A stretch of DNA of 64,000 bases from an uncultured Parabacteroides sp. (GTDB lineage: Bacteria; Bacteroidota; Bacteroidia; Bacteroidales; Tannerellaceae). This document shows positions 5,655-56,082 of this stretch, in pieces. The stretch spans positions 2,428 to 66,427 of the forward strand of contig CASEGC010000019.1 of assembly GCA_949287365.1 (NCBI GenBank), in the 5' to 3' direction. Within the stretch, counting starts at the first letter, position 1. Every line of letters starts with the position of its first letter. Below the pieces are notes generated by a model. The model did not search any database. It saw nothing but the letters and a program-made list of their open reading frames with translations, and was not told the DNA's origin. The position numbers and the translations under genes were made by a program.

Positions 5655-5740
5655 TCTATCTTTAGGCTGAAGATATATATCTTTAGGTTAAAGATACGCG
5701 TCTTTAGGTTGAAGATATGTATCTTTAGGCTAAAGATAGA
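5655..5740 (+). repeat. 86-bp 4x21-bp palindrome array, copy 1 (arms extend ~5578-5831)
   Basis: tc-tatctttaggctgaagata-ta-tatctttaggttaaagata-cg-cgtctttaggttgaagata-tg-tatctttaggctaaagata-ga; arms align with copies 2, 4 and 6; degenerate end motif ttatagcggacgcatgac at 5814-5831. Confidence 0.95.
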
Positions 5741-5966
5741 GAAAAGTCCCGCATGTTCCGGATTTTTTCCCGTGGTATCCGGAAGTTTATTTCCCCATGT
5801 CCCTATTTTTTCCTTATAGCGGACGCATGACATTAATATATAAGAAGGAAAAAGCGAGCGTATCTCAAAATATAAATATTTGGAATATTCCACTTTTATC
5901 TATGTCAGTTATAGAATTATGATTATCTTTGTCAAAACATTCATAACAAATAAATTTTATAAAGCT

Positions 5967-6179
5967 ATGGCAAGAACGATTGACTATTCAAAAAAAGCGG
6001 ACAAAATCAAGGAACAAGTAGACGAATTAGTACAAGAATTAATGGCGGCGAAAGCGGCTCCGGTCGTTACGAAAAGAAGCTTAAAAGCTAGCGATATAGA
6101 TTTCGAAAGCGAGGATATCAGAACCTTACAGCAACTGCAAGTTCGTATCGCCCGTATTATTCTAGAAAAGAGTAAATAA
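5967..6179 (+). CDS. Small helical/coiled-coil hypothetical protein (70 aa, MARTIDYSKK...)
   Basis: ATG at 5967 after AT-rich leader and TATCTTTG -7 motif (~5924); followed by terminator. Confidence 0.7.
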   Translation: MARTIDYSKKADKIKEQVDELVQELMAAKAAPVVTKRSLKASDIDFESEDIRTLQQLQVRIARIILEKSK

Positions 6180-6214
6180 ACGGCTCTTCTCTCATTACGA
6201 TATCAGGAAAAAAC

Positions 6215-6262
6215 AAAAACGTCCTTCCCTCGGATTTCCGGAAAAGGGAAGGCGTTTTTTTT
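6215..6262. terminator. Intrinsic terminator (possibly bidirectional)
   Basis: aaaaacgtccttccct...agggaaggcgtttttttt stem flanked by A and T runs. Confidence 0.75.
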
Positions 6263-6324
6263 CATCTCTTTTCCCAATCCGCAAAGAAAAACGCGTATAT
6301 TTGAGAGTCAAATCAATACGAGAT

Positions 6325-12450: not shown

Positions 12451-12747
12451 AACACGAGTTCGATATAAACTCCAAACGGATAAGAGGATAACAAACCGGA
12501 AAAAAGTTCGATAGCCGGGAAGAAAACTTGGAAAGTCGGCGAAAAAAACCGGAAACTCCATAGGAAAAAGTCTATCTTTAGACTGAAGATATATATCTTT
12601 AGGTTAAAGATATGTATCTGTAGGTTGAAGATATGTATCTTTAGGCTAAAGATAGAGAAATATCCGGCGTATGGCGAACTTTTTCATATAAGGTTCGAGT
12701 TTTTTTGTCCCTTCTTTTCCTTTTTTTCCTTGTGTCGAACTCGCGCT
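12451..12747 (+). repeat. Palindrome-array element copy 2 (core 12571-12656) with inverted ends
   Basis: 86-bp four-unit core; left end aacacgagttcgatataa (12451-12468), right end ttgtgtcgaactcgcgct (12730-12747). Confidence 0.93.
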
Positions 12748-13262: not shown

Positions 13263-14174
13263 CTACCGGATGGGGGCTTTTTCATAACGCGCCAGCATTT
13301 GCCGCAAGAGCTCGCGTATCTCGTCCCGAAGCGAAGCGGGACGCAAGACTTCCACATTCTCCCGATGCCACAGCAGGCGTTGGATGAAATCATACGAAGG
13401 ACGTACGTAATATTGGAACAAGACATACTCTTCCGTCGTCTCAATCTCTTTTTGCGAAGTGTGGATAGGTGTCGAACGTACATAATCCACTTGATGTCCG
13501 TAAACCTTCAGTACGATTTCCTCCGGTTGCTTGTTGTCGTGGATGATGCCGAAACAGTCTTGATAAAACGTTTGCGGAGTAATGTCCGGAGACGGCAGGC
13601 AAGACTTTTCCCCAATGGATAAATCGCGCATCCGCTCCAATGCCAATACCCGTGTTTGGCTATGGTCTAAATACTCGCAAATCAAATACCAGCGATGCTC
13701 AAATAAACGCAAAAAACAGGGAATTACCTCATACGAAAAAACACGGTCTTTCGCATAATAGGAAACGTAGTCGAAACAAACCGTTTTCTCTTTGTCAATG
13801 GCATCCAATAGAATATGTAGGGATTCAACCCCGGTCGGTATCTCTTGCAACATGATTTTCTCTCGATGTCGCAAAGCCAACGTGGAAAGATTATTCACGT
13901 GGATACTCCCCAGCAAGTACTTGTAAAGCGGGTTCTCTCGCACCTCCTCCGGATTCGCCAAGTGATATTTCCTCAAGCGCGGGTCGAAGTCGATGTCGAT
14001 TTGGAACGTGAGCGCGATATACCGTCGGTCGCGGTCGAATGTCCGTGCCGAAATCTCCTCGCCGTCATAATTCAGTGAATACTCCCGAAAGCGTTCGTTC
14101 AACTCTTTCAGTGACATATCCCCATAGTCGATAAACGTACCGACCTCCCAAAGGCAACGTTCGTATTTGTCCAT
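13263..14174 (-). CDS. WYL-domain transcriptional regulator (wHTH-WYL-WCX)
   Basis: ISARTFDRDRRYI wHTH; VIPCFLRLFEHRWYLI, RVLALERMRDL; PIHTSQ..., VEVLRPASLR. Confidence 0.92.
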   Translation of the reverse strand: MDKYERCLWEVGTFIDYGDMSLKELNERFREYSLNYDGEEISARTFDRDRRYIALTFQIDIDFDPRLRKYHLANPEEVRENPLYKYLLGSIHVNNLSTLALRHREKIMLQEIPTGVESLHILLDAIDKEKTVCFDYVSYYAKDRVFSYEVIPCFLRLFEHRWYLICEYLDHSQTRVLALERMRDLSIGEKSCLPSPDITPQTFYQDCFGIIHDNKQPEEIVLKVYGHQVDYVRSTPIHTSQKEIETTEEYVLFQYYVRPSYDFIQRLLWHRENVEVLRPASLRDEIRELLRQMLARYEKAPIR

Positions 14175-14216
14175 AGCGTATTTTCCTATTTGTTTCCGCA
14201 AAGAAAAGCATAATAG

Positions 14217-14235
14217 TCGGACTTATTTTGTCCGA
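14217..14235. promoter_or_regulatory. Candidate WYL operator TCGGAC-N7-GTCCGA between divergent promoters
   Basis: Perfect 6-7-6 inverted repeat centred between symmetric gcaaagaaaag / ctttttcttttgc (-7-like TTTG boxes on both strands). Confidence 0.55.
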
Positions 14236-14390
14236 GCTAACTTTTTCTTTTGCAATGTAAAAACAAATAAAGGAAACAGGTTGATTTATAAATGGCTTTT
14301 CGTTACATTTGCGGTAATTCCAGGTAGAACCAAGCGAGGCATCGAACGGAAGGACATACCGAAAGCGAAAAAGCGTTTACAATATTATTC

Positions 14391-14557
14391 CCAACTCCGG
14401 AAATCGCCAATTTTCAACTGTACGGGAATAGTAGACAACAAATGCTTACGCTCTGCTGTATTATTCTATGTCTCAGACAAGAACTATCACAGTATAGAGC
14501 GTGGGCTGTTGTTTAATTATCCGTACAGTGGGTTATTTGGCGATACCTCGGGGTTGG
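14391..14557 (+). ncRNA. Long imperfect hairpin (structured leader or ncRNA) ahead of island operon
   Basis: Nested pairings ccaactccg/cggggttgg, atcgccaa/ttggcgat, actgtacgg/ccgtacagt, acaaca/tgttgt, gcttacgctct/agagcgtgggc, tgtc-tca-gaca; TACATTTG -7 motif at 14304. Confidence 0.5.
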
Positions 14558-14660
14558 ATAATTGAGTAACAGTTCCCACGCTTTTTCTATTACGTAATTA
14601 AAAAATCCGAACCGGAGGGGAACAGGGGAAGGCAAAAAACTAATATAATTAATCATCGAC

Positions 14661-15674
14661 ATGGAAAAAGCTTGTTCTATCTTTGGATTGACAATTGAGC
14701 AAACGCAATTATTGTTCAGTTTACAACGTCTTATTACAGAAGGAGATTGCTCTTATACATTAGCCAACGGTGGTGGACTATTTGCAAAATCTGATGTAGC
14801 TCAAAACAAAAGACTATGGTTACATAAATGGGATACTTCTATTGCTGATTATTTGAAGAAACTTTCCAATAAGAATTTAGCTCCACTTCGTTCGGATATT
14901 GAAATACAAAATCTTATCCACAGTATCAAAAGTGAAACTAACATATGGAAATATATGATTTTCTTAGAATGTGTTCTCTATAGCCCTTATTATCCGTTAA
15001 GTGAAAATAAGGATGACTATAAACAATTCAAAGGATTAAAATTACACAAAGAGAAAAGAAAAGAAATACTTTATCATATATGCTCTTTATTAGAAATAGA
15101 CTCCAAATATATAGAACGATTTGAAAGTGCGCATTCAAAATCAATAAAATCTTTGTCTGGATATTGGACAAAAGTAGCTGCTGCTGCAGGTGTAGGTTTA
15201 ATCCTTATACTTATAGCAATAGCTACATTTCAATATCAAATTATTGCCTTCTTTGCAGCAAACGGTCTTCATGGTGCAGCTGCTATATCTGCAGGTCTTG
15301 CCGCATTAGGAGGTGGCGCTATTGCTGCAGGAGGTTTTGGCATGGCTGGAGGTATTGCCGTGCTTATTGGTGGAGGATCTCTCCTTGGTATTTCTGCGGG
15401 AGGAGCTGTAGGAATGGGTATAGCTTCTTTAGGTGCCGGAGCCGTGCTATCTGAAGCTGCAAAAATGCAGGTAGTTCTTTCGGAAATAGTTTTAGCAATT
15501 CAAAAAGATACGAAGTCTTTCCAAGAAATTTTATTCAATCTACAGCGACAAAATCAGAATCTCAAACAAGAACTTAGCATATTAAAAGCTGAGACAGAAA
15601 AAAATAAGAAGCAAATTAAGAACTTGGAGAAGAGTATTGAGTATCTGGAAAAACTAATAAAAAGAAATATATAA
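14661..15674 (+). CDS. Glycine-zipper membrane protein with C-terminal coiled coil
   Basis: GLHGAAAISAGLAALGGGAIAAGGFGMAGG hydrophobic Gly/Ala tract; heptad C-terminus LQRQNQNLKQELSILK. Confidence 0.8.
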   Translation: MEKACSIFGLTIEQTQLLFSLQRLITEGDCSYTLANGGGLFAKSDVAQNKRLWLHKWDTSIADYLKKLSNKNLAPLRSDIEIQNLIHSIKSETNIWKYMIFLECVLYSPYYPLSENKDDYKQFKGLKLHKEKRKEILYHICSLLEIDSKYIERFESAHSKSIKSLSGYWTKVAAAAGVGLILILIAIATFQYQIIAFFAANGLHGAAAISAGLAALGGGAIAAGGFGMAGGIAVLIGGGSLLGISAGGAVGMGIASLGAGAVLSEAAKMQVVLSEIVLAIQKDTKSFQEILFNLQRQNQNLKQELSILKAETEKNKKQIKNLEKSIEYLEKLIKRNI

Positions 15675-15678
15675 TCAC

Positions 15679-16950
15679 ATGGAAGATTTTCATAAGTTAT
15701 CTCAAAAAGTAAATGCGATCAAGAATATCCAAAAAGAAATAGAGATTGAAACTTCATCATTAAACGAAGAAGTTAAAATCAACACTTCCGCATTGGATGC
15801 ATTAACTCAAAGAATTAATAATTTACATCAAAATACAAATACATTACCTATAGCTTCAGAGTTTGATATTCAAGACAAGATGTTTTGTGTAAATTCAAGA
15901 GAAATAGATTCGCTGTTGAATGAAGATTTATTCAAGAGAAATAAATCTTTATCGGATAAAGTATATGATCTAAATAATGTTGATATTTTGGTAGCATGTG
16001 TAACAGGAGGTATTGCAGTACTTACAGATTTCCTAATAGTCAAAACACCTAAAAATATTAGAATTGAAGGAGAGATAAAAGAAGCTAGCATATTGACGCA
16101 ATTGATTAAGAAAATAGGTTTTACAGAAGATAAAAAAAAAGCAAAATGGATTCGTGCTTTGGAGAGATGGTTTCCTGTAAATTATGATATTGCTATATCT
16201 GAAAATATAAAAGGAATGGGACCTAAAAACCATCGGATATTTAGTTTAGGTCATGACCCAAGCATAATGGGACTTATTTGGGGTATAAAAGATATTGTCT
16301 GTGGTACATTCTCATATATAGACAAAAATGGTATATTACATATGGATAAGGTTCGTGACGCTGATATCAAAAGAATATTTTATGCTCCTATTCTATGGAT
16401 AGGACATTTACTATCTGATATATTTACAAAAGCGGGTTTGCCAATTCCAGGTGGCTGCGCTCTTAGAATTTTGAAATTCGGAAGTTTTGGTGAAAAAAAT
16501 AGAACAATAGGAGATATTATTGAATATATGTATATAACTGGATATGATTTACGACATTTAGCAACAGCTTCTATATGCAATGTCGTTATTGAATTACTCA
16601 TCCGAACATATTTGTTTCTAATCGGAAATAAAGTATTTGAAGAGAATGCTCCCCTATTTGAAAAGGAATATGACAGAGTTAAAAATTATCAGAAAAAACA
16701 CAAACTTCTTATGACTTCTTATTCTGTTGCTATATATGGCAATATTTCTAAAGTTGCTATTTATCATGGACAGCCAAACGCAATTAATATTCCCATTTGG
16801 TACTCTTTTGCAAAAGAGTCTATTTCACAATTTACTATATATAAAAACAGCAATAATGACAGCATAAAATCAATAGAAAACAGACATTTAATAGATGAAA
16901 GATTTGCAGATTTAATAAAATACGACAAAAATTGTGAGTCCGAAAAGTAA
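15679..16950 (+). CDS. Hypothetical protein with N-terminal coiled coil and HRxxSLGHDP motif
   Basis: 423-aa ORF 4 nt downstream of previous gene; HRIFSLGHDP, HLLSD..T..GLPIPG, GYDLRH. Confidence 0.8.
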   Translation: MEDFHKLSQKVNAIKNIQKEIEIETSSLNEEVKINTSALDALTQRINNLHQNTNTLPIASEFDIQDKMFCVNSREIDSLLNEDLFKRNKSLSDKVYDLNNVDILVACVTGGIAVLTDFLIVKTPKNIRIEGEIKEASILTQLIKKIGFTEDKKKAKWIRALERWFPVNYDIAISENIKGMGPKNHRIFSLGHDPSIMGLIWGIKDIVCGTFSYIDKNGILHMDKVRDADIKRIFYAPILWIGHLLSDIFTKAGLPIPGGCALRILKFGSFGEKNRTIGDIIEYMYITGYDLRHLATASICNVVIELLIRTYLFLIGNKVFEENAPLFEKEYDRVKNYQKKHKLLMTSYSVAIYGNISKVAIYHGQPNAINIPIWYSFAKESISQFTIYKNSNNDSIKSIENRHLIDERFADLIKYDKNCESEK

Positions 16951-16953
16951 GAG

Positions 16954-16972
16954 TTAGACCACTTTTGTCCGA
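16954..16972 (+). promoter_or_regulatory. Second candidate WYL operator/internal promoter (TTAGAC-N7-GTCCGA)
   Basis: agttagaccacttttgtccgacctatctttttcctttgc aligns with agtcggacttattttgtccgagctaactttttcttttgc at 14215. Confidence 0.5.
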
Positions 16973-17015
16973 CCTATCTTTTTCCTTTGCGCCATAAAAC
17001 ACAACACAATACTTT

Positions 17016-17918
17016 ATGGACATGCAAAAGATACAAGAACAAATTGAAGGAATCAGCCAAAAAGTAAATGTTCCGGCTGAGTTAGCCTCTCTATGCGGTC
17101 TTTACCTTTCCGCATTAGATAATCTGAAAGGGGATGTAACGGATAGTTCTTTCTTAAGAACGCTAAATGAGACCTGCGATAAATTAAAGGAAAACACGGA
17201 AGAAAGGTTACGAATCGCTACGATTATAGATGTCTTGTTGGCCGCATCCTTTTATTATAAGCGGGCACATCTTTGGTCGTCGAAGCGAAAGGAGTTTCAG
17301 ACATCCTTTGCGTTGCTACTTTGGGAAGGGTATAATCTGTTGATGGATTGGCACGATGAATACAGCGAAGAATATTATGAGCGCATAAACTACTCTGAGC
17401 GATTGTTTAACGAATTCGCATTAGAAGCAAGCCGGACAGATTTCAACCGATTCAATTTGTGGAGAAATATGGTGAAGCAATACCGGATTATTTTAAGCCA
17501 TGGCTTGAAACGATTAGACAGCCGTTTGAAGAATATTTTCGCCAAATATGCCAAAGAGATATTTATTTTCAGCAGCTGGATATTGGGGAACTTTTATCTT
17601 CTTGCTTGGAGTATAACTACATTATCCGGAGGGCTTGTTTTACTCGCTTTATCCCACCTGTTTTACAAATTCTATGTAGAGAAACCCTACTTTTCATTAT
17701 TGGTTGGAGAAGGTATTAAAAGGCATAAAATAGAATCTGGAGAACTCTATATTGCCCGTGAAGCTTTTTGGGATTGGGGGCTATTTGCGTTGGGAACACC
17801 CTTACGAGTATTTCTATTTGGATTATTGACTCTACTTTTTATAGAACTCATACAAGGATTCTTTGGGTGGAAGATTTTGTTCAGACAAAAAATAGTTTCG
17901 CAGCCAATCAAACGGTAG
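17016..17918 (+). CDS. Hypothetical membrane protein (C-terminal TM helices)
   Basis: 300-aa ORF; hydrophobic segments in last ~120 aa. Confidence 0.75.
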   Translation: MDMQKIQEQIEGISQKVNVPAELASLCGLYLSALDNLKGDVTDSSFLRTLNETCDKLKENTEERLRIATIIDVLLAASFYYKRAHLWSSKRKEFQTSFALLLWEGYNLLMDWHDEYSEEYYERINYSERLFNEFALEASRTDFNRFNLWRNMVKQYRIILSHGLKRLDSRLKNIFAKYAKEIFIFSSWILGNFYLLAWSITTLSGGLVLLALSHLFYKFYVEKPYFSLLVGEGIKRHKIESGELYIAREAFWDWGLFALGTPLRVFLFGLLTLLFIELIQGFFGWKILFRQKIVSQPIKR

Positions 17919-17998
17919 AATCAGAAAAAAGAGGTAACAAAGATTGTGGCGTCTAATGAATAAGTCTTTTATGAATACACATTAAAAGATTACATAAT

Positions 17999-19051
17999 AT
18001 GAAAAAGAAATTTTTAGTAGGTAGCCTATCCGTCTTGGCTATCGTGTTAGGTGTTTATTTTCTGTCCCCTTCAGTGGCTGAATATAATGAAAAGGCGGAT
18101 GTGTTGTTCGATCAGCAGAAGTATACAGAAGCGTTTACTTACTATAAAAAAGCAGCTGATAAAAAAGATGGTTATGCATGTTATCGATTAGGAATACTTT
18201 ACTTGAAGGGATTAGGAATAACAGCATCCGAATCAAAAGCCGTAGACTATTTTCAAAAATCGGCAGATTTGAATGACGCAAACGGGCAATATGAATTAGC
18301 CTATCATTACTATGAAACTCATGATTATAGGAAAGCTCACTTTTATGCGATGAAATCTGCGTTACAAGAAAATTTAGATGCAGCATGTCTGTTAGGATTC
18401 CTCTATGATCAAGGGAAAGGCGTAACTAAAGACGAAAAAAAGGCTTTTGGTTGGTATGAAAAAGCAGCCACTAAGAATACAGATGCCAAAATGAATCTAG
18501 CTATGGCTTATTTCACCGGAAGAGGAACAGAAAAAAATTACAATAAAGCATTCCAATTATTTACAGAATTAGCAGGAAAAGGAGAAACTGATAGTTTTAA
18601 TTTCATTGGGTATATGTACGATCATGGTTTTGGTACATCTAAAAATGTTCAGCAAGCCTGTATGTGGTTCAAAAAAGGAGCTGAAGCAGGGGATTTAATC
18701 GCACAATATAATTGGGCTACCAAATTGTGGAGAGGAGAAGGAGTTCCCCAAGACCAAGATGAAGCATTGCGTTGGTACAAGAAATCAGCGACAGGAGGAA
18801 ATGAACAAGCACTTCAGTTTATAAATGGATACGAGGAATGGAAACGCAATGAAGAAATTAGAAAAGAAAAAGCACGTAGACAGAAAGAGTCAGAAGCTCC
18901 CCGTATCTGTCCGGGCTGTCAAGGCACAGGTCGTGTATTGGCAGGAACAGGCAAATGGGAAAATTGTGGACTGTGTGGTGGTACCGGTGTTTTTCAATCT
19001 TTTACTGGTAGATGGAAAGATATGATTGATGCGATAGATAATATGTGGTAG
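17999..19051 (+). CDS. Sel1-like repeat protein with C-terminal DnaJ-type CxxCxGxG zinc finger
   Basis: N-terminal signal/TM; repeated LG..Y..G.GV..D..KA..WY.KAA; CPGCQGTG...CGLCGGTG. Confidence 0.88.
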   Translation: MKKKFLVGSLSVLAIVLGVYFLSPSVAEYNEKADVLFDQQKYTEAFTYYKKAADKKDGYACYRLGILYLKGLGITASESKAVDYFQKSADLNDANGQYELAYHYYETHDYRKAHFYAMKSALQENLDAACLLGFLYDQGKGVTKDEKKAFGWYEKAATKNTDAKMNLAMAYFTGRGTEKNYNKAFQLFTELAGKGETDSFNFIGYMYDHGFGTSKNVQQACMWFKKGAEAGDLIAQYNWATKLWRGEGVPQDQDEALRWYKKSATGGNEQALQFINGYEEWKRNEEIRKEKARRQKESEAPRICPGCQGTGRVLAGTGKWENCGLCGGTGVFQSFTGRWKDMIDAIDNMW

Positions 19052-19065
19052 TTAAATATTCGATT

Positions 19066-19287
19066 ATGCCATTATTTAGAATTACAACCAAGCAATCCAA
19101 GAATGCGAATGGCATTCGGATTGAAAAAGGAATGAGTGTCGAAGTCGTAACCTCTTCGATGAGTAATCCGTTGACAACAAACGGAGGACAAGCAGTTGCC
19201 GATGCTTTCATGCGCGTTTATGGTATTGACGCCAAGAAAGCTGGGATTCTTTCAACAGTCTATTTGGATGTTGTGAAGGTACGGTAA
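19066..19287 (+). CDS. Small conserved Bacteroidales protein (resembles DUF6140 from memory; unverified)
   Basis: MPLFRITTKQ...NGIRIEKGMSVEV...NGGQAVADAFMRVYGID. Confidence 0.6.
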   Translation: MPLFRITTKQSKNANGIRIEKGMSVEVVTSSMSNPLTTNGGQAVADAFMRVYGIDAKKAGILSTVYLDVVKVR

Positions 19288-19359
19288 TCTAAAGAGAATG
19301 GAACGGGGAATCAATTCTCCGTCCTATTCTTTGTATAAGAATTCGATTTCCCAACAAAT

Positions 19360-20274
19360 ATGATATATTTAGAACACTTCCGATTACCACGAAACAAATG
19401 GGTTGATTGGTATTTTTCTTTTCCTTCTCCCGGGCTAGAACCTTCTCCTGAATTCTTAGCTACATTGGAAGAATTGGAAAAGCGTTTTCCTGAAGGCATA
19501 CCACAAGCGAATAAGATGACAGGTTTCACATCTTGGTATCCATGGAATATATTTTACCAGCGAGGAATAGTAGATTTCCATTTTGATGATATTACAATTC
19601 TTTATGGCGGGAATGGTTCGGGTAAAACAACTTTGTTGAATGTGATTACACAAAAGTTGGAATTGCATCGTTCGACTTTGTATAATAGAAGTCCCTTTTT
19701 TGATGATTATCTGAAATTTTGTGATGCTTTTCTTATAAAAGATGTCACAAGCAAATATGCTATTCAAAAAGGGAAAATTATAACCAGTGATGATGTGTTC
19801 GACAATATGCTCAGAGTGCGAAATGAGAATCAAGCAATCGATTTTGAGCGTGAACGTTTGGTAAAAGAATTCATAGAAAGACCCGTGCGAAAGAAAAATG
19901 ATCCTTCTTGCTCTAAGTATGTCCGTTCTCGTTTGTCTCAAAACCACCCTGAACAATCGAACGGTGAAACCGCATTCAATTATTTCGTAAAAGAGATACA
20001 AGATGATTCTCTGATATTATTGGATGAACCGGAAAATAGCCTATCCGCTAAATGGCAAATTGAATTGGCGCAATTCCTACAAGGAGCCGCTCGCACTTTT
20101 CATTGCCAACTGATAATAGCTACTCATTCTCCATTTATTTTATCAACACCGGGAGCATGGATTTATGATTTGGATGCACAACCTATCCGAAGAAACAAAT
20201 GGCAGCATCTCGAAAACGTTCGCTGTTATTATGAACTGTTTAAACGATATGAGGAACTATTTGTTGAAATATAA
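19360..20274 (+). CDS. Stand-alone ABC-type ATPase (COG3910/AAA_21-like)
   Basis: Walker A GGNGSGKT, QSNGE signature, LLDEPENSLS, IIATHSP. Confidence 0.88.
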   Translation: MIYLEHFRLPRNKWVDWYFSFPSPGLEPSPEFLATLEELEKRFPEGIPQANKMTGFTSWYPWNIFYQRGIVDFHFDDITILYGGNGSGKTTLLNVITQKLELHRSTLYNRSPFFDDYLKFCDAFLIKDVTSKYAIQKGKIITSDDVFDNMLRVRNENQAIDFERERLVKEFIERPVRKKNDPSCSKYVRSRLSQNHPEQSNGETAFNYFVKEIQDDSLILLDEPENSLSAKWQIELAQFLQGAARTFHCQLIIATHSPFILSTPGAWIYDLDAQPIRRNKWQHLENVRCYYELFKRYEELFVEI

Positions 20275-20287
20275 ATAAAGGAAACCT

Positions 20288-21613
20288 ATGAAATTCAGCA
20301 AAAGAATATTAGACATATTGGACAAACAAGAAGCCCGGTTGGAAAGATTAATTGAAAAGAAACAAATCGAACTGATTCATCATCCGGAGAGACGAGATAA
20401 AGTAAGTATTATATTACCGATAGAAGGTCCGGGAACCTCTTGCCTTTACATTTACAAAGAGGATACGCCAATGTCCGTCTTTCGGGAAGTGGCTCAATTG
20501 ATGTTCTTTTTATATTACCCATACCAATATCCTCCGAAGGAATGTTTGCTTAAATGCGTGAAATATCTCCGGATGCTTCCTGAAGATATACAGGAAATAT
20601 ACCTTTATGCTTATCACAAACAAGCCGCACAAATATATAGCGGGAAGAAAGCGGATTACCACTTGCGGCAAGCGATAAAATACAAATTGGATGATTATGA
20701 AGAACCTGAAGAAATACCTACACTTCAGGAACTACTGGAGAAATGGCATCAGGCACCTAATACCTATTTGGTTGTCCTGATGAAGATTCTTTCATTTATA
20801 CTGTCTGATAGAGACAAAGAGCATCCGGATAACTTCTACGAGTGGAACAGGGAGCAGTATGAATTGATGGAAAAATCATTGGATGAAGCCATTACCCTTT
20901 ACGGAGAAAATGAATCCTATCCTTCTATTTATCGGGCTTATTTCTACTTTTGCCAATCCATCTATTACCGGCAAACGCACAGATACACGTTGGCTGAAAA
21001 AGCCATACAAAAAGCCAAAGAACTTTTACCTTCCATAGAAGAGGATAATATGGAAGATTTTCTTTTAGAAAATATGAAAGAAAAATTGGATGTGATGGAT
21101 AGAAAAGTCCAAATAGCCATAGAAAACTTTATGACCAATGAAACCTATTATGACGATGAAGAAGAGAACGATGACGAAGAAGAGGATGATGAAGAGAATG
21201 AAGATAATGAATATACATTCGATGAGCTATATGAATTAGCCGAAGAAGGGAATGCTGATGCACAATTCGAAGTTGCTTTAGCTTATGAATATGGAAATGG
21301 CGTAACGGCAAATCCGCGTATCGCCTTTGAGTGGATGTGGATAGCAGCACATAATCATAATTTGTCCGGAATGAATAATTTAGGAAGTTATTATGGCAAG
21401 GGTATAGGTGTAGAACAAAACGATGCTGAAGCATTTAAATGGTACAAATTGGCAGCCGAAGAAGGAGATGCTTATGCCCAATACAATTTGGCGATTTGTT
21501 ATAGCAATGGGGAAGGTGTCTATGCAGATGAAGAGAATGCTTTGCGATGGATACGAAAAGCTGCCGAACAGGGCATGGAAGAGGCGATACTGGTTTTGAA
21601 AGCCTTAGAATGA
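20288..21613 (+). CDS. TPR-like/acidic linker/Sel1-repeat protein
   Basis: Helical N-region, D/E run DDEEENDDEEEDDEENED, three Sel1 repeats at C-terminus. Confidence 0.82.
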   Translation: MKFSKRILDILDKQEARLERLIEKKQIELIHHPERRDKVSIILPIEGPGTSCLYIYKEDTPMSVFREVAQLMFFLYYPYQYPPKECLLKCVKYLRMLPEDIQEIYLYAYHKQAAQIYSGKKADYHLRQAIKYKLDDYEEPEEIPTLQELLEKWHQAPNTYLVVLMKILSFILSDRDKEHPDNFYEWNREQYELMEKSLDEAITLYGENESYPSIYRAYFYFCQSIYYRQTHRYTLAEKAIQKAKELLPSIEEDNMEDFLLENMKEKLDVMDRKVQIAIENFMTNETYYDDEEENDDEEEDDEENEDNEYTFDELYELAEEGNADAQFEVALAYEYGNGVTANPRIAFEWMWIAAHNHNLSGMNNLGSYYGKGIGVEQNDAEAFKWYKLAAEEGDAYAQYNLAICYSNGEGVYADEENALRWIRKAAEQGMEEAILVLKALE

Positions 21614-21685
21614 AACTAAAAAGAATAGTCGTTTAAACAGCTACCAAGCATATATAGATAAACTTTATTCAAAAACAGATACATC

Positions 21686-23789: not shown

Positions 23790-23873
23790 AAAGCACCAGC
23801 ATAAACATTATCAGATTCAAAATAGAAACTTTTTCCGTACATTCGCGAACCGATAAGATAATGAGACGAACGC

Positions 23874-37804: not shown

Positions 37805-38084
37805 AACGTGAGTCCGATATAAGAGAAAAAGGAAAAAGGTGGGACAAAAAACCTCGAACCCTATAGGAAAAAGTTCGCCGCATACCGGGAAATTCTCTAT
37901 CTTTAGCCTAAAGATACATATCTGCAGTCTAAAGATACATATCTTTAACCTAAAGATATATATCCGCAGCCTAAAGATAGACTTTTCTCCGTGGTGTTCC
38001 CAACTTTTCCCGCCGGCTTTCCAAGTTTTCTTCCCGGCTATCGAACTTTTTCTCCCTATCCGTTTTTTATATCGGACTCACCTC
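37805..38084 (-). repeat. Palindrome-array element copy 4 (core 37896-37981), wholly reversed, with inverted ends
   Basis: Ends aacgtgagtccgatataa (37805-37822) and ttatatcggactcacctc (38067-38084); arms are reverse complements of copy 2 arms. Confidence 0.95.
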
Positions 38085-38184
38085 AAAAAAACGCGGGCCT
38101 TACGCGGCAAGATTATGGGCTACACATTTCTTCGCGCTTAAACGAATTACGCATATCTTTGTAGGACTTAAAAACAAATTAAAA

Positions 38185-45730: not shown

Positions 45731-45983
45731 TTCCTCCAAAATATCTTAATTCCGTTTTTTCATGATTTTTACTGCCTTTTTGACTACCGCCTATCCAAAA
45801 GGTTTATCACCGAAAATCAAAAAAAAATTTAAATAAATCGACCTCTTCGCTTTCACTTTCGTAGGGAAAAACGCTCTTTTCTAAATAAAGTAAATCCGCG
45901 GAAGCCTAAGGGGAAAAACTCGCGAAAGCCCGTCAAAAACTTTTTCGGCCGCCGGAAAAAACCGTAAAGCCTATGGGGAAAAG

Positions 45984-46069
45984 TCTATCTTTAGGTTGAA
46001 GATATGTATCTTTAATCTGAAGATATATATCTTTAAGCTGCAGATATGTATCTTTAGCCTAAAGATAGA
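45984..46069 (+). repeat. 86-bp palindrome array, copy 5 (phased arms ~45905-46145)
   Basis: tc-tatctttaggttgaagata-tg-tatctttaatctgaagata-ta-tatctttaagctgcagata-tg-tatctttagcctaaagata-ga. Confidence 0.93.
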
Positions 46070-46246
46070 GAATTTGTCCCGTCCGAGAGAAGTTTTCTCG
46101 TGGGTCTCACTGTTTTTTCCCGCCTATATTTTCCTTTTTCTCCGGGGAGGAGGAAACGATAGCGTGAAGAGCGCGATTATTCCGAAACGAATCGGGGCAA
46201 AAATGATTCGTATGTATTAATTTCGCGAACATATAAGAGAATTGCT

Positions 46247-49200
46247 TTGGAAATAGAAGAATTAGTGAACATTTATGCCGCCCATCCCATAGTGACGGCG
46301 GCTGATGCCCTCCTTCGCGACGATAAGGTGCGGGATATTTTCTGGAAAGGACTGAACGGCTCAGGGGCGGCCTTGGTCATCGCCTCCCTGCTCAAGCGAA
46401 GAGGCGGACGATATGTTTGCGTGTTGAACGATTTGGAAGAGGCCGGTTATTTTTATCACGACCTTGAGCAACTCGGCGTGGGCGACGAGGCCTGTTTTTT
46501 CCCGTCGGCCTACCGGCGGGCCATCAAGTATGGGCATATCGATTCCGCTAACGAGATAGCGCGCACGGAAGCGTTATCCCGCTCGCAAGACGCGGAACGC
46601 CCTTTCGTCATCGTCACTTATCCTGACGCTTTGGCGGAGAAGGTGGTGGGGCGAGAGGCGCTGGAGGAGAACACGCTCAAAATCGATGCCGGGGAGAGAT
46701 TGGACCCGATATCCGTGTCCGACGTGTTGGATGGATATGGCTTCGAGCGCGTCGATTACGTCTACGAGCCTGGACAATATGCCCTCCGCGGGAGTATCCT
46801 CGATGTCTTCTCGTTCTCCTACGAGTTTCCCTACCGTATCGATTTCTTCGGGAACGAGGTCGAGACAATCCGCTCTTTCGACGTAGAGACCCAACTTAGT
46901 AAAGAGAAGCTGGAGAGCATACGTATAGTCCCGGAGATGAGCAAACGCGCGCAGGCCGACAATTCTCTTCTAAGCCTTTTGCCGCGGGACACGCTCCTCG
47001 CGGCGAAAGACCTCGGCTGGTGTGGCGAGCGAGTCGGAAGTATCTGGAACGACGAGCCCGTCACGGGAGACGAAGAGTCGTTCGCCGACACCACTCAAAT
47101 GCGCGAGAAACTAATCACGAGGGAAGAGTTCCTACGGGCGGCGGCGAACCTCAGGCGCGTCCATTTCGGAACACGTTCGCCTAAAACGCCGGACGCCACT
47201 ATCCAATTCGCTATGCGGGCGCAGCCGATTTTCCACAAGAATTTTGACCTCGTAAGCGAATCGTTCCGTAAATATCTTGACGAGGGGTACACGTTATATA
47301 TATTAAGCGACCAGGAAAAGCAGACCGACCGTATCCGCACGATTTTCGAGGACCGCGGGGAACAAATCCCGTTCACGCCCGTGAACCGGACGATACACGA
47401 AGGTTTCAGCGACGACTCCTTACGGATATGCCTCTTCACCGACCACCAGCTGTTCGACCGTTTCCATAAGTTCAGCCTACGAAGCGACAAGGCACGGAGC
47501 GGCAAGATTACCCTGTCGCTCAAAGAGCTCAACCAGTTCTCGCCGGGCGACTATATCGTGCATATCGACCACGGCGTGGGACAGTTCGGCGGATTGGTCC
47601 GGACCGAGGTGAACGGGAAGATACAGGAGGTCATCAAGTTGATTTACCAGAACAACGACATCATATTCGTCAGCATCCACTCCTTGCACAAGCTATCCAA
47701 ATACAAAGGGAAAGAGAACGGCGAACCGCCCAAACTGAGCAAACTGGGTACGGGAGCTTGGGAGAAGATGAAGGAACGGACCAAGGCGAAAGTGAAAGAC
47801 ATCGCCCGCGATTTGATACTTCTCTATTCCAAACGTAAGAAGGAAAAGGGTTTCGCTTATAGCCCGGACAGCTTCCTGCAACATGAGCTGGAGGCGAGCT
47901 TCATCTACGAGGACACGCCGGACCAAACGCGGGCGACCGCCGAGGTGAAGGAGGATATGGAGAGCGACCGACCCATGGACCGATTAATCTGCGGGGACGT
48001 TGGCTTCGGCAAGACCGAGGTGGCCATACGGGCGGCGTTCAAGGCCGTGTCGGACAATAAGCAAGTGGCCGTGTTGGTTCCTACGACCGTCTTGGCGTAC
48101 CAGCACTTCCAAACCTTTAGCGAACGGCTGAAGGACTTCCCCTGCAAAATCGATTACATCAGCCGGGCACGCACGCCAGCGCAAATCAAGGCCACGCTAA
48201 AGGCGTTGCAAGAAGGCGAGGTCAATATTCTCGTGGGTACGCACCGAATCGTAGGCAAGGATGTTCATTTCAAGGACTTGGGATTGCTTATCATCGACGA
48301 GGAGCAGAAATTCGGAGTCTCGGTGAAGGAGAAGCTCCGCCAACTGAAGGTGAACGTGGACACGCTGACGATGACCGCCACGCCGATTCCACGTACCCTA
48401 CAGTTCTCCCTGATGGGGGCGAGAGACCTTTCCAGCATCACCACTCCCCCGCCCAACCGGTATCCGGTGCAAACGGAGGTGGAACGTTTCAATCCCGACA
48501 TCATCCGGGAGGCGATAAACTTCGAGATGAGCCGCAACGGGCAGGTGTTCTTCATCAACAACCGCATCCAAAACATCTACGAGATGGAAGCCTTGGTCAA
48601 ACGGGAAGTGCCCGACGCGCGCGTCGCCGTGGGACACGGGCAGATGGAGCCGGAGAAGCTGGAGAAAATCATCCTCGACTTCGTGAACTACGAATACGAC
48701 GTGCTAATCGCCACGAGTATCGTAGAGAACGGTATCGACGTGCCGAACGCCAACACGATTATCATCAACAACGCCCAGCAGTTCGGGCTTAGCGACCTGC
48801 ACCAGTTGCGCGGGCGTGTCGGACGAAGCAACAGGAAAGCCTTTTGCTATCTTCTCTCCCCGCCTCTTTCCTCCTTGACGCAGGAGGCCCGCAGGCGTTT
48901 GCAAGCCATCGAGAACTTTTCCGAGCTGGGAAGCGGCATCCATATCGCGATGCAAGACCTCGACATCCGAGGGGCGGGAAACATGTTGGGCGCCGAGCAA
49001 AGCGGTTTCATCGCCGACTTGGGTTACGAGACGTATCAAAAGATTCTGGAAGAGGCGGTGGACGAGCTGAAGAGCGAGGAGTTCGCCGACCTTTACGCGG
49101 AGGTCGCCGGCAAGAAGCGGGAAACGGGAAGCGAGTACGTGCGGGAAACTTACATCGAGAGCGACCTCGAACTGATGTTCCCGCCCGCCTACATCCCCAA

Positions 49201-49594
49201 CGACTCGGAGCGCGTCTCTCTGTACCGAGAGCTGGACAATATGGAGGAAGAGCGCGACATCCGCGCCTTCGAGGAGCGTTTGGAGGACCGTTTCGGGAAA
49301 ATACCCGAAGAGGGGATGGAACTGATTCGTGTCGTGCGGCTCCGCCGGATGGCCAAAGGACTGGGAATAGAGAAAGTGGTCCTGAAGAAGGGGCAGATGG
49401 GGCTTTACCTCATCAACAACCCGGACAGCCCATATTACCAAAGCGAGATGTTCGACAAGTTGCTGCGTTTCGTGCAAAAACATCCTCGCGCCTGCAACCT
49501 ACGCGAGCAAAACGGCAAACGGAGCATCGTAATCAAGGAGGTGCCTACCGTAGAGAAGGCTTGTGGATATCTGGACGAGATGGAAAAACTATAA
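46247..49594 (+). CDS. mfd: Transcription-repair coupling factor
   Basis: VHIDHGVG (CarD/RID), CGDVGFGKTEVA, DEEQKFG, TATPIPRTL, QLRGRVGRS, TRCF C-terminus. Confidence 0.97.
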   Translation: MEIEELVNIYAAHPIVTAADALLRDDKVRDIFWKGLNGSGAALVIASLLKRRGGRYVCVLNDLEEAGYFYHDLEQLGVGDEACFFPSAYRRAIKYGHIDSANEIARTEALSRSQDAERPFVIVTYPDALAEKVVGREALEENTLKIDAGERLDPISVSDVLDGYGFERVDYVYEPGQYALRGSILDVFSFSYEFPYRIDFFGNEVETIRSFDVETQLSKEKLESIRIVPEMSKRAQADNSLLSLLPRDTLLAAKDLGWCGERVGSIWNDEPVTGDEESFADTTQMREKLITREEFLRAAANLRRVHFGTRSPKTPDATIQFAMRAQPIFHKNFDLVSESFRKYLDEGYTLYILSDQEKQTDRIRTIFEDRGEQIPFTPVNRTIHEGFSDDSLRICLFTDHQLFDRFHKFSLRSDKARSGKITLSLKELNQFSPGDYIVHIDHGVGQFGGLVRTEVNGKIQEVIKLIYQNNDIIFVSIHSLHKLSKYKGKENGEPPKLSKLGTGAWEKMKERTKAKVKDIARDLILLYSKRKKEKGFAYSPDSFLQHELEASFIYEDTPDQTRATAEVKEDMESDRPMDRLICGDVGFGKTEVAIRAAFKAVSDNKQVAVLVPTTVLAYQHFQTFSERLKDFPCKIDYISRARTPAQIKATLKALQEGEVNILVGTHRIVGKDVHFKDLGLLIIDEEQKFGVSVKEKLRQLKVNVDTLTMTATPIPRTLQFSLMGARDLSSITTPPPNRYPVQTEVERFNPDIIREAINFEMSRNGQVFFINNRIQNIYEMEALVKREVPDARVAVGHGQMEPEKLEKIILDFVNYEYDVLIATSIVENGIDVPNANTIIINNAQQFGLSDLHQLRGRVGRSNRKAFCYLLSPPLSSLTQEARRRLQAIENFSELGSGIHIAMQDLDIRGAGNMLGAEQSGFIADLGYETYQKILEEAVDELKSEEFADLYAEVAGKKRETGSEYVRETYIESDLELMFPPAYIPNDSERVSLYRELDNMEEERDIRAFEERLEDRFGKIPEEGMELIRVVRLRRMAKGLGIEKVVLKKGQMGLYLINNPDSPYYQSEMFDKLLRFVQKHPRACNLREQNGKRSIVIKEVPTVEKACGYLDEMEKL

Positions 49595-50331: not shown

Positions 50332-50775
50332 CTACACCGTGCCCGGGGTCTCCTCCTCTTCCTCCTGCTCCTCTTTCTTGCGGCGGGCGGGGTTGTCCAC
50401 GCTAAGCTCCACGCTGAGGGCGGCGGTACGCATCTTCTGCTTGGGGGTGAAGACAATCTTCGGGGTCTTCAGCGAGTCCGCCACACAGACATCTTCTTCG
50501 GCGTCCATCATCTTCGAGGGGACCACGAGGCGGAGGCTGCCCAGCTCGGCGAGGTCCACGCTCATGCCCATACTCAGCGCCTCGCACACCACGTTGCTCA
50601 GGCTAATCAAGGCGTTACTCACGTCACCTGCCGACAGGAAGGTCTCGCGAACAATGCGATCGACGACCTTTTCGTTGGTCAGCTTCTGTTGCGACTTGGG
50701 ATAGGCGTAATACACCGTCTGCCCCTTACGGTCACCCAAAGGAGCGATTTTGGATTTAACCTCAAACTCGATCAT
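50332..50775 (-). CDS. HU-related DNA-binding protein with acidic tail
   Basis: ETFLSAGDVSNALISL, GMSVDLAELGSLR, KIVFTPK; ends EEQEEEEETPGTV. Confidence 0.85.
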   Translation of the reverse strand: MIEFEVKSKIAPLGDRKGQTVYYAYPKSQQKLTNEKVVDRIVRETFLSAGDVSNALISLSNVVCEALSMGMSVDLAELGSLRLVVPSKMMDAEEDVCVADSLKTPKIVFTPKQKMRTAALSVELSVDNPARRKKEEQEEEEETPGTV

Positions 50776-50830: not shown

Positions 50831-50910
50831 TCAAGGGTCATAATGACTGTTAAGCAAGGGTCATAATGACTGTTGGCGAAGGGTCATTATGACCCTTGAA
50901 CAGGGGTCAC
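50831..50910. repeat. 23-bp-period palindromic array upstream of HU-like gene
   Basis: caagggtcataatgactgttaag / caagggtcataatgactgttggc / gaagggtcattatgacccttgaa / caggggtca; perfect 17-bp IR 50831-50847 vs 50883-50899. Confidence 0.88.
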
Positions 50911-53118: not shown

Positions 53119-53355
53119 CTATTCAATATCTATCATTCCAGAGAATTGCCCGATAACACCCGCATGAGACTTGGCCGATATATGCTTATAAAGCAACAAA
53201 GCGGAAGCGGAATAGAAACAAGCGTAATACAAACTGTTCACGGCCGAATTCCACTGTCCTGCCTCGTACAATATCCGAGCGGCCTCGTATACTTCCCGTG
53301 CCTTCTCCAAACGGTAACGGATATAAGCCGTCATGTTTCCCGCGTCTTCTTTCAT
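53119..53355 (-). pseudogene. Truncated HEPN-domain protein
   Basis: AVNSLYYACFY...SHAGVIGQF then stop at 78 aa; C-terminal half with R..GDY motif missing. Confidence 0.7.
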
Positions 53356-53672
53356 ATTCGTATAGCTTCCGATTGTATTTGTTTATAAAAAGGGGTGATA
53401 GCGTGACGCGTATGCCAATCTCGCTTGCCATAGGCGAACAATTGGATAACCTGCCCCGTCTCAACCATAAGGTCGCAAATATGGTCCATAAAGAGCTCCT
53501 CCTCCCGAAACGTCAACTTCGGCTTGGAAGAGAGCACCAACACGTCCCAATCCGAATCGGTACGCGCGTCCTGCCTCGCACGGGAACCATAAAGCCAAAC
53601 TTCGGCATCGGGTTCCACCTCATGCACGTTCTGGCTGATACGTCGTAACATCTCTTGATAGTCTGTTCTCAT
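53352..53672 (-). CDS. Minimal nucleotidyltransferase (MNT)
   Basis: LYGSRARQDA..DSDWDVLVL; overlaps HEPN start. Confidence 0.88.
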   Translation of the reverse strand: MRTDYQEMLRRISQNVHEVEPDAEVWLYGSRARQDARTDSDWDVLVLSSKPKLTFREEELFMDHICDLMVETGQVIQLFAYGKRDWHTRHAITPFYKQIQSEAIRI

Positions 53673-53771
53673 AATCCCAATCTTTTACATTCGACCTCCA
53701 CAAAGATACGTTTTTCCCTTCTCTTTCCCTCGTCAATCCACAAAAAAGGTGGATATAAGGGAAGCCTTTTA

Positions 53772-55823
53772 CTATATATTGTAGGTCAGTGTCAGCCACG
53801 CCACACGAGGGTCGCGGTTGCGGCGTTGCGTCATGCGCAGGTCGGGCGTGTCTATCACCGTCACCTCCTCCAAGCTATCGAAGATGTTGTTGACGCTCAG
53901 ATTCAGCCGCAGCTTACGGTCGAGGAGGTATTGCGACAGGCCGGCGTTCACGCTGTAATGGCTTCCTATCTCGCCTTGAGGCGTGAGCTGGTCGGAGATA
54001 TAGAAGCCGTCTATCTGCACCTCCGTGGTGGGCGTGAGGCGCAGGTTCACGTTCCCCTTCACGTCCCAGCAGAGCAACGATTTCCTCTCGCCATAGCCTA
54101 CCGTCCGCCCGTCTATCTCATCCCGATACAGGTCGCCGGAGAAACCTATCGTCAGGAAGCGCGCGGGGTTCCACGAGCCGGAGAGGTCCGCCCCCACGGT
54201 CCGGCTATGCCCCATGTTCACCCTCCGCCATACGGTCTCCTCCTCCACCTGGCTCGCCACCTCCATGATACGGTTCGAGCGGTTCCGGTAATAGACCGCC
54301 GGGGTGAGGCGGAAACGAGGGACGGAGAGTTGATAGCCCAACTCCACCTGATGGATGAACTCGTCCTTCAGGTCCGGATTACCCTGTATGATATGAGTCG
54401 CGTCACTATTGTCCAAGAAAGAGCAAAGGTACGCGCCCGTCGGACGGATGACCCGTTGCTGGTAACTCAGGCTGAAAGCGCCACTCTCCGACACCTCATA
54501 CGAGAGACGGGCCCTCGGATAGAGATGGAAGCGGGAATGATACACGCCATCCATGCCGGAACGGTTGAACTCCGCCTGCGCGCCCAGCTCCACGCCGAAG
54601 TCGCCCCAGCGTTTCCCCACCGAGGCGTAAAGCAGGTTCAAGTAACGGTTATACGCGTATCGGTACGACTTCGCCGGGTTCAAGACGAAGCCCTCCTCCT
54701 TCTTGTCGTTGGCGATAGAGACGTAATCCTCGTCGCGGGCCCTGCCTATATAACCCACCCGGATGTCCCAGTCCTCGGCGGAGTAGTCGTAACCCATGCT
54801 CCAATAATAGTTCCGCTTCGTCTGGTCGATGAACTGGTTGTCCTCCGCCACGATAGTCTCGTTCCGCGGGTTCTCGTTCTTGTAATCGTTATCCTCGTCG
54901 TACGCGAAGTTATTGTAGTTGAAGAGCGCGTGGAAGCCGTTCGCCTCCGAGAAACTATGTCTCCAACGAGCCTCCGCCGCGTAAGCCTCCTGCCGCTGGT
55001 CGTTATACCGGTTCCGGAGCACGTGTTTCATCTGCTCGCCCTTCAGGTTGAACACCTGATTATCGATACGCCCATACCGGCTATAATCCATCAGGTGATA
55101 CAATCCGCCCACGGTTATCCGGTCCTTCGGGGACAAATCATAGCCTATCCTCAAATCGGCCACATGCACGTCCGGCCGGGCGGAAGCGTTATTATTCATG
55201 AGCGTCTCGTTGGCTTGGTTCTCGGTCAGCTTACTAAACGTCCGCGCCCTGTACTCCTTCCTGTAATTGTACTTGGCGTTGATATGGAACTTCCCCGGAT
55301 GCAGGTTCAACGCCGCCCCGACGTTATAACGCTCGTGCCATCCCGCACCCAAGGTGACCGAAAAGGGAGAGTCGCCCCGCTCGCTCGACTCCAAATCGAG
55401 CGCACCGGCCGCCCCGTCCGGCACCACCGTGATGGCAGGATAAGTCCCCATGGAAATCCTATCGAAGAACATCGCCGGCAACTGAATCAGCACGTCGCCT
55501 CCATATTCCTCCAGCAAGCCGTAAGGGACACCATTAATCAACATCCCCACCCTGTTCGAGCCGCGATAAGTGACCCCGCCCTCGATATCCGTCACCACGG
55601 AAGGAATCTGGCGGAAAACGTCCGCCGCCGTGCTGGGGAGACCGCTCAAATTATGCTCCACTCGCAACGCGCTTACGCCACTCTTTATACTCAGTCCGGA
55701 GAACCGCGCCCCACGTACCTCTATGTCCGGTATCACGACCGCCGTATCGGCCGGAGTCTGCGCGAGAACGGGTGTCGCCAGCAACGACGCGAGAAGAAAA
55801 CGCTGCATTGTCATCTTATTCAT
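53772..55823 (-). CDS. TonB-dependent receptor-like outer-membrane beta-barrel protein
   Basis: Signal peptide, plug DVFRQIPSV.TD.EG.VTYRG, GNPDLKDE, terminal LTLTYNI. Confidence 0.82.
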   Translation of the reverse strand: MNKMTMQRFLLASLLATPVLAQTPADTAVVIPDIEVRGARFSGLSIKSGVSALRVEHNLSGLPSTAADVFRQIPSVVTDIEGGVTYRGSNRVGMLINGVPYGLLEEYGGDVLIQLPAMFFDRISMGTYPAITVVPDGAAGALDLESSERGDSPFSVTLGAGWHERYNVGAALNLHPGKFHINAKYNYRKEYRARTFSKLTENQANETLMNNNASARPDVHVADLRIGYDLSPKDRITVGGLYHLMDYSRYGRIDNQVFNLKGEQMKHVLRNRYNDQRQEAYAAEARWRHSFSEANGFHALFNYNNFAYDEDNDYKNENPRNETIVAEDNQFIDQTKRNYYWSMGYDYSAEDWDIRVGYIGRARDEDYVSIANDKKEEGFVLNPAKSYRYAYNRYLNLLYASVGKRWGDFGVELGAQAEFNRSGMDGVYHSRFHLYPRARLSYEVSESGAFSLSYQQRVIRPTGAYLCSFLDNSDATHIIQGNPDLKDEFIHQVELGYQLSVPRFRLTPAVYYRNRSNRIMEVASQVEEETVWRRVNMGHSRTVGADLSGSWNPARFLTIGFSGDLYRDEIDGRTVGYGERKSLLCWDVKGNVNLRLTPTTEVQIDGFYISDQLTPQGEIGSHYSVNAGLSQYLLDRKLRLNLSVNNIFDSLEEVTVIDTPDLRMTQRRNRDPRVAWLTLTYNI

Positions 55824-55996
55824 TGTTATTCATTATCCGATAAATTCGCGAATCGCCGGCAAAAGTAGGAACATTTAAACGAATACACAACCCGCAGACG
55901 GCATCCCGGCGCCATCCGCCCCGACAAAAAAAGAAAAGAGAGGGGGAAAAATTTCCCTACCCCGCAAGAAAAACTTCCGCACATAACGGATATTTC

Positions 55997-56082
55997 TCTA
56001 TCTTTAGGCTGAAGATATCCATCTTTAGGTTAAAGATATGTATCTTTAGATTGAAGATATGTATCTTTAGGCTAAAGATAGA
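55997..56082. repeat. 86-bp palindrome array, copy 6 (core forward, arms reversed; arms ~55935-56160)
   Basis: tc-tatctttaggctgaagata-tc-catctttaggttaaagata-tg-tatctttagattgaagata-tg-tatctttaggctaaagata-ga; right arm is reverse complement of copy 1 left arm. Confidence 0.95.

Follow-up and report, generated by a model that had tools for sequence, protein, structure and literature searches.

The 64,000-bp window analyzed here, a stretch of contig CASEGC010000019.1 from an uncultured Parabacteroides sp., carries six copies of an interspersed repeat of ~280 bp that is abundant in the genome it comes from and, as far as the literature was searched, undescribed; it is classed here as a transposable element of the miniature inverted-repeat type (MITE), carrying an internal repeat array. 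The terminal ends, a young subfamily of copies and the turnover of insertion sites show a mobile origin of the MITE kind, and the evidence from alignments is good that the array and the phasing of the sequence around it are under constraint. The reading favored here, with a probability of about 0.55, is that of a MITE-like element whose 86-bp core is a selected docking array for a sequence-specific DNA-binding protein.

Under this reading, the non-coding repeat would have been dispersed by transposition through a clade made up of gut Parabacteroides and their relatives, with its central 86 bp serving as a cooperative docking array for a putative sequence-specific DNA-binding protein. The four sites of the array, being two helical turns apart, would all lie on one face of the helix, and binding would proceed cooperatively from one strong symmetric site (unit 4) to three hybrid sites (units 1–3). 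Four A-runs or T-runs on each side, at a spacing of ~21.3 bp, would give the arms a fixed intrinsic curvature, and the array would act on local DNA architecture upstream of promoters and not as RNA. It is the pattern of sequence conservation that suggests protein binding of the core; the host, or a resident protein, would select for the core and its phasing, and the array would act through the architecture of DNA. Binding by four dimers and a nucleoid or regulatory role may likewise be envisaged.

A polar four-unit core within phased arms

The source assembly is a metagenome bin of 2.54 Mb in 144 contigs, 76% complete and with a GC content of 49.7%, and the genes in the window are of the usual Bacteroidota kinds. 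A search of the window for the 19-bp palindrome pattern, allowing up to three mismatches, gave 22 matches where 0.01 would be expected by chance, and Tandem Repeats Finder reported six arrays of period 21 with 3.4–3.9 copies each. The search and an alignment of the six copies confirmed what the original prediction had described, namely six cores of 86 bp, each bounded by TC and GA and holding four units at exact 21-bp spacing, flanked by A-runs to the left and, as their mirror image, T-runs to the right. The cores of copies 1 (5655–5740), 2 (12571–12656), 5 (45984–46069) and 6 (55997–56082) are on the plus strand and those of copies 3 (25886–25971) and 4 (37896–37981) on the minus strand. The lattice with its phased A/T runs extends over ~5581–5814 in copy 1, ~12497–12730 in copy 2, ~25812–26045 in copy 3, ~45910–46143 in copy 5 and ~55923–56156 in copy 6. 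HU-like genes start at 12754, just past the right arm of copy 2, and at 26072 beside copy 3, whilst copy 5 lies between the divergent genes for a TonB-dependent receptor and mfd.

The genome-wide copy number, a check that had been proposed together with the prediction, came to 113 arrays, 101 of which have exactly four units at 21-bp spacing. The other 12 comprise one five-unit array, four three-unit arrays, five two-unit arrays and two single units, and two of the arrays with one to three units (n = 11) sit at contig ends, where they are cut. Both single units match the consensus with 0–1 mismatch, and one of them is a complete element, with arms and ends: at C10:11770–11990 of the source genome, both arms and recognizable ends are present around only one core unit, so the number of units can change while the rest of the element is retained. 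The unit number that had been described as fixed is therefore held at four in the large majority of arrays, but it is not invariant.

With the 101 four-unit copies oriented alike, the left half-site, TATCTTTAG, is nearly invariant in all four units, whereas the right halves of units 1–3 vary at three or four positions (CTGAAG, CTGCAG, CTGCGG, CTTGCG and TTAAAG are among the forms) and unit 4 forms a perfect palindrome, with GA after it, in 101 of 101 copies. The linker between units is mostly pyrimidine–purine. The unequal right halves and the perfect fourth unit give the core a direction, which in most copies is tied to the immediate flanks, with AAAGTC before the core and GAGAAT after it; the core is inverted relative to these flanks in three of the 101 copies, copy 6 of the window among them. 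The four palindromes with their TC and GA borders are thus present as first described, but they are not equal. The right halves of units 1–3 (reverse complement TATCYGCAG) resemble the second half-site type of a genome from another genus, G063, which is described below. Units 1–3 therefore look like hybrids of two site types, carrying a second half-site type on the right, rather than like decayed palindromes.

An ungapped profile over the 101 copies, with positions given relative to the start of the core, is conserved from about −76 to +157 and bears no sign of insertions or deletions. A-runs are centered at −70, −49, −27 and −6 and T-runs at +87, +108.5, +130 and +151, positions that are mirror-symmetric about the center of the core and spaced at ~21.3 bp. 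Information content is 1.3–1.9 bits at run positions and ~0.1–0.9 bits at other arm positions. Of the 101 copies, 69 have a run at each of the seven scored positions and 88 at six or more, while in a control shifted by 10 bp there are 81 copies that fill two or fewer. The A-tracts and T-tracts that had been described as continuing the lattice to the left and right are thus found there, in exact register. A hairpin between the arms was considered and rejected, as the likeness of the left arm to the reverse-complemented right arm is no greater for arms of one copy than for arms of different copies (0.449 vs. 0.442).

The full element reaches beyond the lattice, to ~280 bp, and it is bounded by terminal inverted repeats in a subset of copies. 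There are 31 copies, 276–285 bp in length, that make up a young subfamily: their arms are 80–88% alike, and the similarity reaches the terminal inverted repeats, the left one reading AACGTGAGTYCGATAT and the right one its inverse. Copy 4 of the window is a complete 280-bp element of this subfamily, on the minus strand at 37805–38084, with terminal inverted repeats GAGGTGAGTCCGATAT at 38084–38069 (minus strand) and ATATCGGACTCACGTT ending at 37805. Allowing up to four mismatches, AACGTGAGTYCGATAT or its inverse is recognizable at 21 left ends and 25 right ends, and at both ends in 11 copies, the terminal repeats having been lost in most older copies. Most intact ends have a T before the element and an A after it, which could reflect either a TA duplication or an extension of the inverted repeat, and no target-site duplication longer than TA was seen at intact ends. 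The remaining ~60 copies have arms unlike those of any other copy (median nearest-neighbor distance of 0.38 over 160 bp), and these copies, without terminal repeats, still keep the core and the phase of the runs. Retention of the center while the ends decay, with no insertions or deletions, is the pattern that selection on a double-stranded DNA platform would give.

Orthologous copies and relatives in other genomes

The element was found in none of 24 randomly drawn genomes of the same genus. When species-representative genomes were scanned, three records proved to carry it, with four units in each: Parabacteroides sp. An277, a cultured isolate with ~32 copies, and the metagenome-assembled genomes BRZ_KC__bin45 and BRZ_PQ__bin90, the latter labelled Paraprevotella, a label that is unconfirmed. 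The polar core is identical in form in all three. Lattices of the same type occur in six of 151 sampled genomes of the family. In G063, a two-junction version of the lattice pattern has matches at 20 or more loci, and the five that were inspected have four units at 21 bp, with half-sites that differ from those above (TATCCGCAG and TATCCTAAG) and flanks of the form AAACTG...CAGTTT. The number of four units is thus kept in four other genomes, the three carriers and G063.

The comparison of An277 with bin45, whose flanking DNA is ~85% identical, separates the parts of the element by their rate of change. For all six An277 loci checked, bin45 has the element at the corresponding position. Over five pairs with four units in both genomes, identity is 86% in the flanks, 82% at variable core positions, 80% at run positions and 65% at arm positions outside the runs, while 258 of 260 invariant core positions are identical. 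Third codon positions nearby are ~75% identical, from which it follows that the filler of the arms drifts at approximately the neutral rate or faster; in these alignments the core half-sites and, less so, the runs are held in place while it drifts. Across all pairs of copies in the source genome, identity is 97.8% at invariant core positions, 77% at run positions and 36% (median) at other arm positions. One orthologous pair (L047 in An277, L082 in bin45) differs by a clean 21-bp deletion of a whole unit, with four units against three. Of the platform for proteins with shaped arms that had been proposed, the part that stands is the conservation of lattice and runs far beyond the surrounding arm; the four equal dimer sites do not, since the core is polar.

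Over greater distances the insertion sites are not retained. Coding identity between the source genome and An277, bin45 and bin90 is ~70%, and adjacency of elements to orthologous genes in the source genome and the other species was observed 8 times against 5.9 expected (p = 0.26), so that shared insertion sites with An277 and bin45 were rejected. The region upstream of uvrA, occupied in the window, is without the element in all three other carrier genomes. Site sharing at the level of chance and the empty uvrA upstream regions together indicate that sites turn over on a longer time scale. These different sites in different species, along with the terminal inverted repeats and the young subfamily, bear out the anatomy of a non-autonomous mobile element, which was among the possibilities raised by the original prediction. 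One candidate empty site, at an An277 locus compared with bin45, proved to be a rearrangement breakpoint. At L056 of An277 and L078 of bin45, the outer edge of the element is exactly where synteny ends, and the two sequences become homologous again at the downstream gene's promoter; it may be that elements and rearrangement breakpoints coincide.

Longer arrays with a 21-bp period were observed in two genomes of a further genus of Tannerellaceae, with 10 units at L073 1436–1640 (G144) and 16 units at L074 1448–1784 (G150). Their units are palindromic around a GATA-CG-TATC junction, as in the element, and it is possible that these long arrays are related to the four-unit elements as forms with a variable number of units. 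Contig depth in four public gut metagenome runs, when summed, was 116–972 over two of the window's elements (37824–38154 and 45768–46098), compared with ~0–25 on the flanks, and loose ends of metagenome contigs carry related units such as TATCTCCAGCCTGGAGATA. The high depth over the element and the related units at loose ends suggest many related copies, including variant types, in those communities. A plasmid collection and viral contigs gave no match to the element.

Genomic context and spacing

Gene context was taken from open reading frames (ORFs) called for this analysis, and 87 copies were classed. Divergent neighbors flank 33 of these, tandem neighbors 47 and convergent neighbors 7, the last to be compared with the 12.5% of all gene gaps that are convergent; divergent gaps are enriched approximately three times by count. 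At least one gene start adjoins 80 of the 87 copies (92%), which is close to the proportion for all gene gaps (87.5%), and the claim that the element always lies upstream of a gene therefore fails genome-wide. An overlap with an ORF was seen in 11 cases, all of them either small ORFs that the element itself creates or real ORFs called with a 5′ extension that is too long; these overlaps being spurious, all 101 four-unit copies are intergenic. The intergenic location that had been noted in the window thus extends to the genome, but the absence of copies between convergent genes does not.

There is no orientation bias in tandem contexts (24 vs. 23), and orientation has no link with local GC skew or gene strand. 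The median distance from the edge of the core to outward gene starts is 166 bp. No promoter was found inside the element: strict Bacteroidota −7 boxes (TAnnTTTG), where there are any, are for the most part located beyond the conserved arms, at distances that vary, and an internal promoter was therefore rejected. The positions and distances of these boxes place the element upstream of host promoters, with no canonical promoter of its own.

Spacing was assessed between neighboring arrays on the same contig, using all 113 arrays, and compared with random placement among eligible gene gaps. The coefficient of variation is 0.54, as against 0.86–0.94 in simulations, and 7% of inter-element distances are below 5 kb, as against 29–36%; neither value was reached in any of 3000 simulations. 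The minimum distance is 2.9 kb and the median is 10 kb. Approximately 8 of the 288 contig ends fall in elements, which makes breakage of the assembly an unlikely cause of the even spacing in this draft bin.

Several further features of the window were recorded. Two nucleotide-excision-repair genes, uvrA (2666–5515) and mfd (46247–49594), each have an element directly upstream. A separate array with a 23-bp period at 50832–50909, with 3.4 units and the palindrome GGTCATAATGACC/TG, is unique in the genome and not dispersed, and lies just upstream of a third HU-like gene (50332–50775, minus strand). A GC-rich 41-bp tandem repeat (3.4 copies, score 171) occupies 33992–34129, between an ORF ending at 33979 and one starting at 34179. 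From ~14000 to 24000 there is an AT-rich island with a GC content of 34–39%, compared with ~50% elsewhere, which adjoins the gene for a WYL/WCX-domain regulator (13263–14201) and in which a codon-based gene caller missed several ORFs; this island was probably acquired horizontally.

Competing explanations and known systems

Several observations weigh against a core selected as a protein docking array. No binding protein was found: two window copies adjoin HU-HIG genes, but genome-wide an element adjoins only 2 of 11 HU-HIG genes, and the 45 element loci examined in other species contain none, and an HU-like partner was therefore rejected as a general link. The conservation of the core could come from gene conversion among copies and not from selection, and at variable core positions the gap between orthologous and non-orthologous identity is modest (0.84 vs. 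0.73, three pairs). Adjacency to orthologous genes in other species, as given above, does not exceed chance. No clean empty site or target duplication was found at intact ends, at the An277 and bin45 loci or in metagenome contigs, and public metagenome contigs, in which the depth for this organism is only 2–6, contain no joint that skips an element. The even spacing could stem from the target immunity of a transposon, or from selection against recombination between repeats that lie close together, instead of from a function for the host, and it is known within the contigs of a metagenome bin that is 76% complete, not at the scale of the chromosome.

The main rival, a possible but not a probable explanation, is that the MITE is purely selfish. 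Its own transposase or recombinase would then bind the core and the phased arm motifs, which would be comparable to the multiple end sites of Tn7, Mu and IR/DR mariner elements, with even spacing arising from target immunity and the uniformity of the core from gene conversion or recent spread. Arm motifs that are periodic at 21–22 bp and mirror-symmetric would suit such sites, but it is the ends of the element that are least conserved and the center that is most conserved, the reverse of a usual transposase substrate. A selfish element would have terminal inverted repeats and a young subfamily, here of 31 copies, along with insertion sites that differ between species (the uvrA upstream region being empty in three other genomes) and copies that avoid one another within 5 kb; set against these are the copies without terminal repeats, which retain the core and the phase of the runs with no insertions or deletions, and the orthologous copies, which keep 258 of 260 invariant core positions while their arms drift. 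Candidate mobilizing enzymes also speak against it. An IS630-type (DDE_3) transposase, suggested by the possible TA ends, is present in none of four carrier genomes, which are drafts; a Y1 transposase (Y1_Tnp), considered as a RAYT partner, is present in one of five carriers and not in the source genome. No autonomous partner with matching ends was found among the larger elements of the source genome, a draft assembly.

The docking-array reading can be taken further, and this more elaborate form is put forward only as a rather unlikely one. The elements would then be domesticated: a Bacteroidales nucleoid protein would load cooperatively on the core, the curved arms would wrap it, and the complexes would act as domain or supercoil barriers upstream of promoters, with one complex approximately every 10 kb and never less than ~3 kb apart. 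Bacteroidales dominate the gut microbiota. Little is known about the organization of their chromosomes; Bacteroidales are not known to possess the IHF, Fis or H-NS of Escherichia coli, and the same holds for IHF in Bacteroidota. The element offers a concrete handle for finding a DNA-architectural protein, having a fixed core, phased runs, a spacing of ~10 kb and versions in other genera, and because An277 is a cultured isolate, a direct search for such a binding protein can be made in it. Were the element no more than selfish, it would remain unusual, as a mobile element whose center is preserved rather than its ends.

An improbable alternative to docking on double-stranded DNA is a structural element acting as a single strand, in which hairpins of the core in RNA or single-stranded DNA would act on transcripts or in replication or transposition. 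In the right halves, many of the changes are of the A>G or C>T type and thereby keep G–T or G–U pairs on one strand, but the commonest variant, CTGCAG, adds a true mismatch. The strand compatible with these pairs folds better in 98 of 101 copies, though this asymmetry follows in part from the way in which orientation was defined. Variant units elsewhere stay palindromic (TATCTCCAG-C-CTGGAGATA and TATCTCTAA-G-TTAGAGATA are examples), yet a center of 1 nt cannot form a loop. The lack of orientation bias relative to genes or GC skew, the lack of complementarity between arms within a copy beyond that between copies, the position of copies upstream of promoters rather than at gene ends, and the absence of an Rfam family at threshold also argue against action as a single strand. 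A slippage minisatellite, or a chance cluster of palindromes without constraint, is hardly credible: there are one-, two-, three- and five-unit variants, and a clean loss of 21 bp separates the members of one orthologous pair, but 22 matches in the window against 0.01 expected leave little to chance, and the copy-number distribution, with unit number and phase held in 101 of 113 arrays and four units kept in three other species and another genus, excludes slippage, as the original prediction had argued.

No Rfam family matched the window at the gathering score, below which there were only weak matches to microRNA precursors of the kind expected of any palindrome. No description of the element was found in the literature, in agreement with the initial failure to match it to a known family, although a bulk census of Bacteroidota MITEs (PMC11602168) may list it undescribed. 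BrickBuilt of Porphyromonas gingivalis is a MITE with a minisatellite, having 23-nt units and 19 copies, one of them with 18 full repeats (Klein et al., 2015; PMC4596501). Its ends, GAGACCTTTGCA, match IS5-type ISPg elements, and its units are never called palindromic in that paper, from the text of which "palindrom" is absent (PMC4596501). BrickBuilt and the Parabacteroides element are alike in their Bacteroidales host, strictly intergenic position near promoters, lack of coding capacity, terminal inverted repeats and internal tandem units of approximately two helical turns. They differ in that the 23-nt units of BrickBuilt vary widely in number, whereas the present element has palindromic units of 21 bp, their number fixed at four, in ~113 copies with ends that are unrelated and not IS5-like; the phased A/T runs in the arms are a feature of the Parabacteroides element.

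Correia elements are 100–155 bp long, with one IHF site, well-kept 26-bp terminal repeats and TA at their ends. The present element resembles them as a high-copy MITE, in the possible TA at its ends and, by analogy, as a putative platform for a DNA-bending protein, but it has an array of four sites and its ends decay while the center is kept. In Neisseria, Correia elements bring the site for a DNA-bending protein, a central IHF site, into promoter regions in high copy (PMC10969869).

The repetitive extragenic palindromes (REPs) and bacterial interspersed mosaic elements (BIMEs), including the IHF-binding RIP and RIB forms, offer a further comparison. These are dispersed palindromic mosaics bound by host proteins and proposed as nucleoid organizers, and REPs are GC-rich hairpins that mostly follow gene ends and are linked to RAYT genes. 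Dispersed palindromic units are common to both, but the units here are AT-rich, convergent genes flank only 7 of 87 copies and 80 of 87 border a gene start, a proportion like that of all gene gaps, and, as noted above, a Y1 transposase is rare among carriers and absent from the source genome. Iterons of plasmid origins and tandem operator arrays, such as ARG-box pairs at 21-bp spacing, are two-turn repeats bound cooperatively on one face. The spacing of two turns is shared with these, and direct repeats followed by one inverted repeat recall iterons with an operator; unlike the ~113 dispersed copies without an associated gene found here, however, such arrays are single loci beside a rep or regulator gene. 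A variable-number tandem repeat would have a freely varying number of units, as opposed to four in 101 of 113 arrays. With prokaryotic MITEs the Parabacteroides element shares a small size (~280 bp), the lack of coding capacity, terminal inverted repeats and an occurrence in many dispersed intergenic copies (113 arrays in 2.5 Mb).

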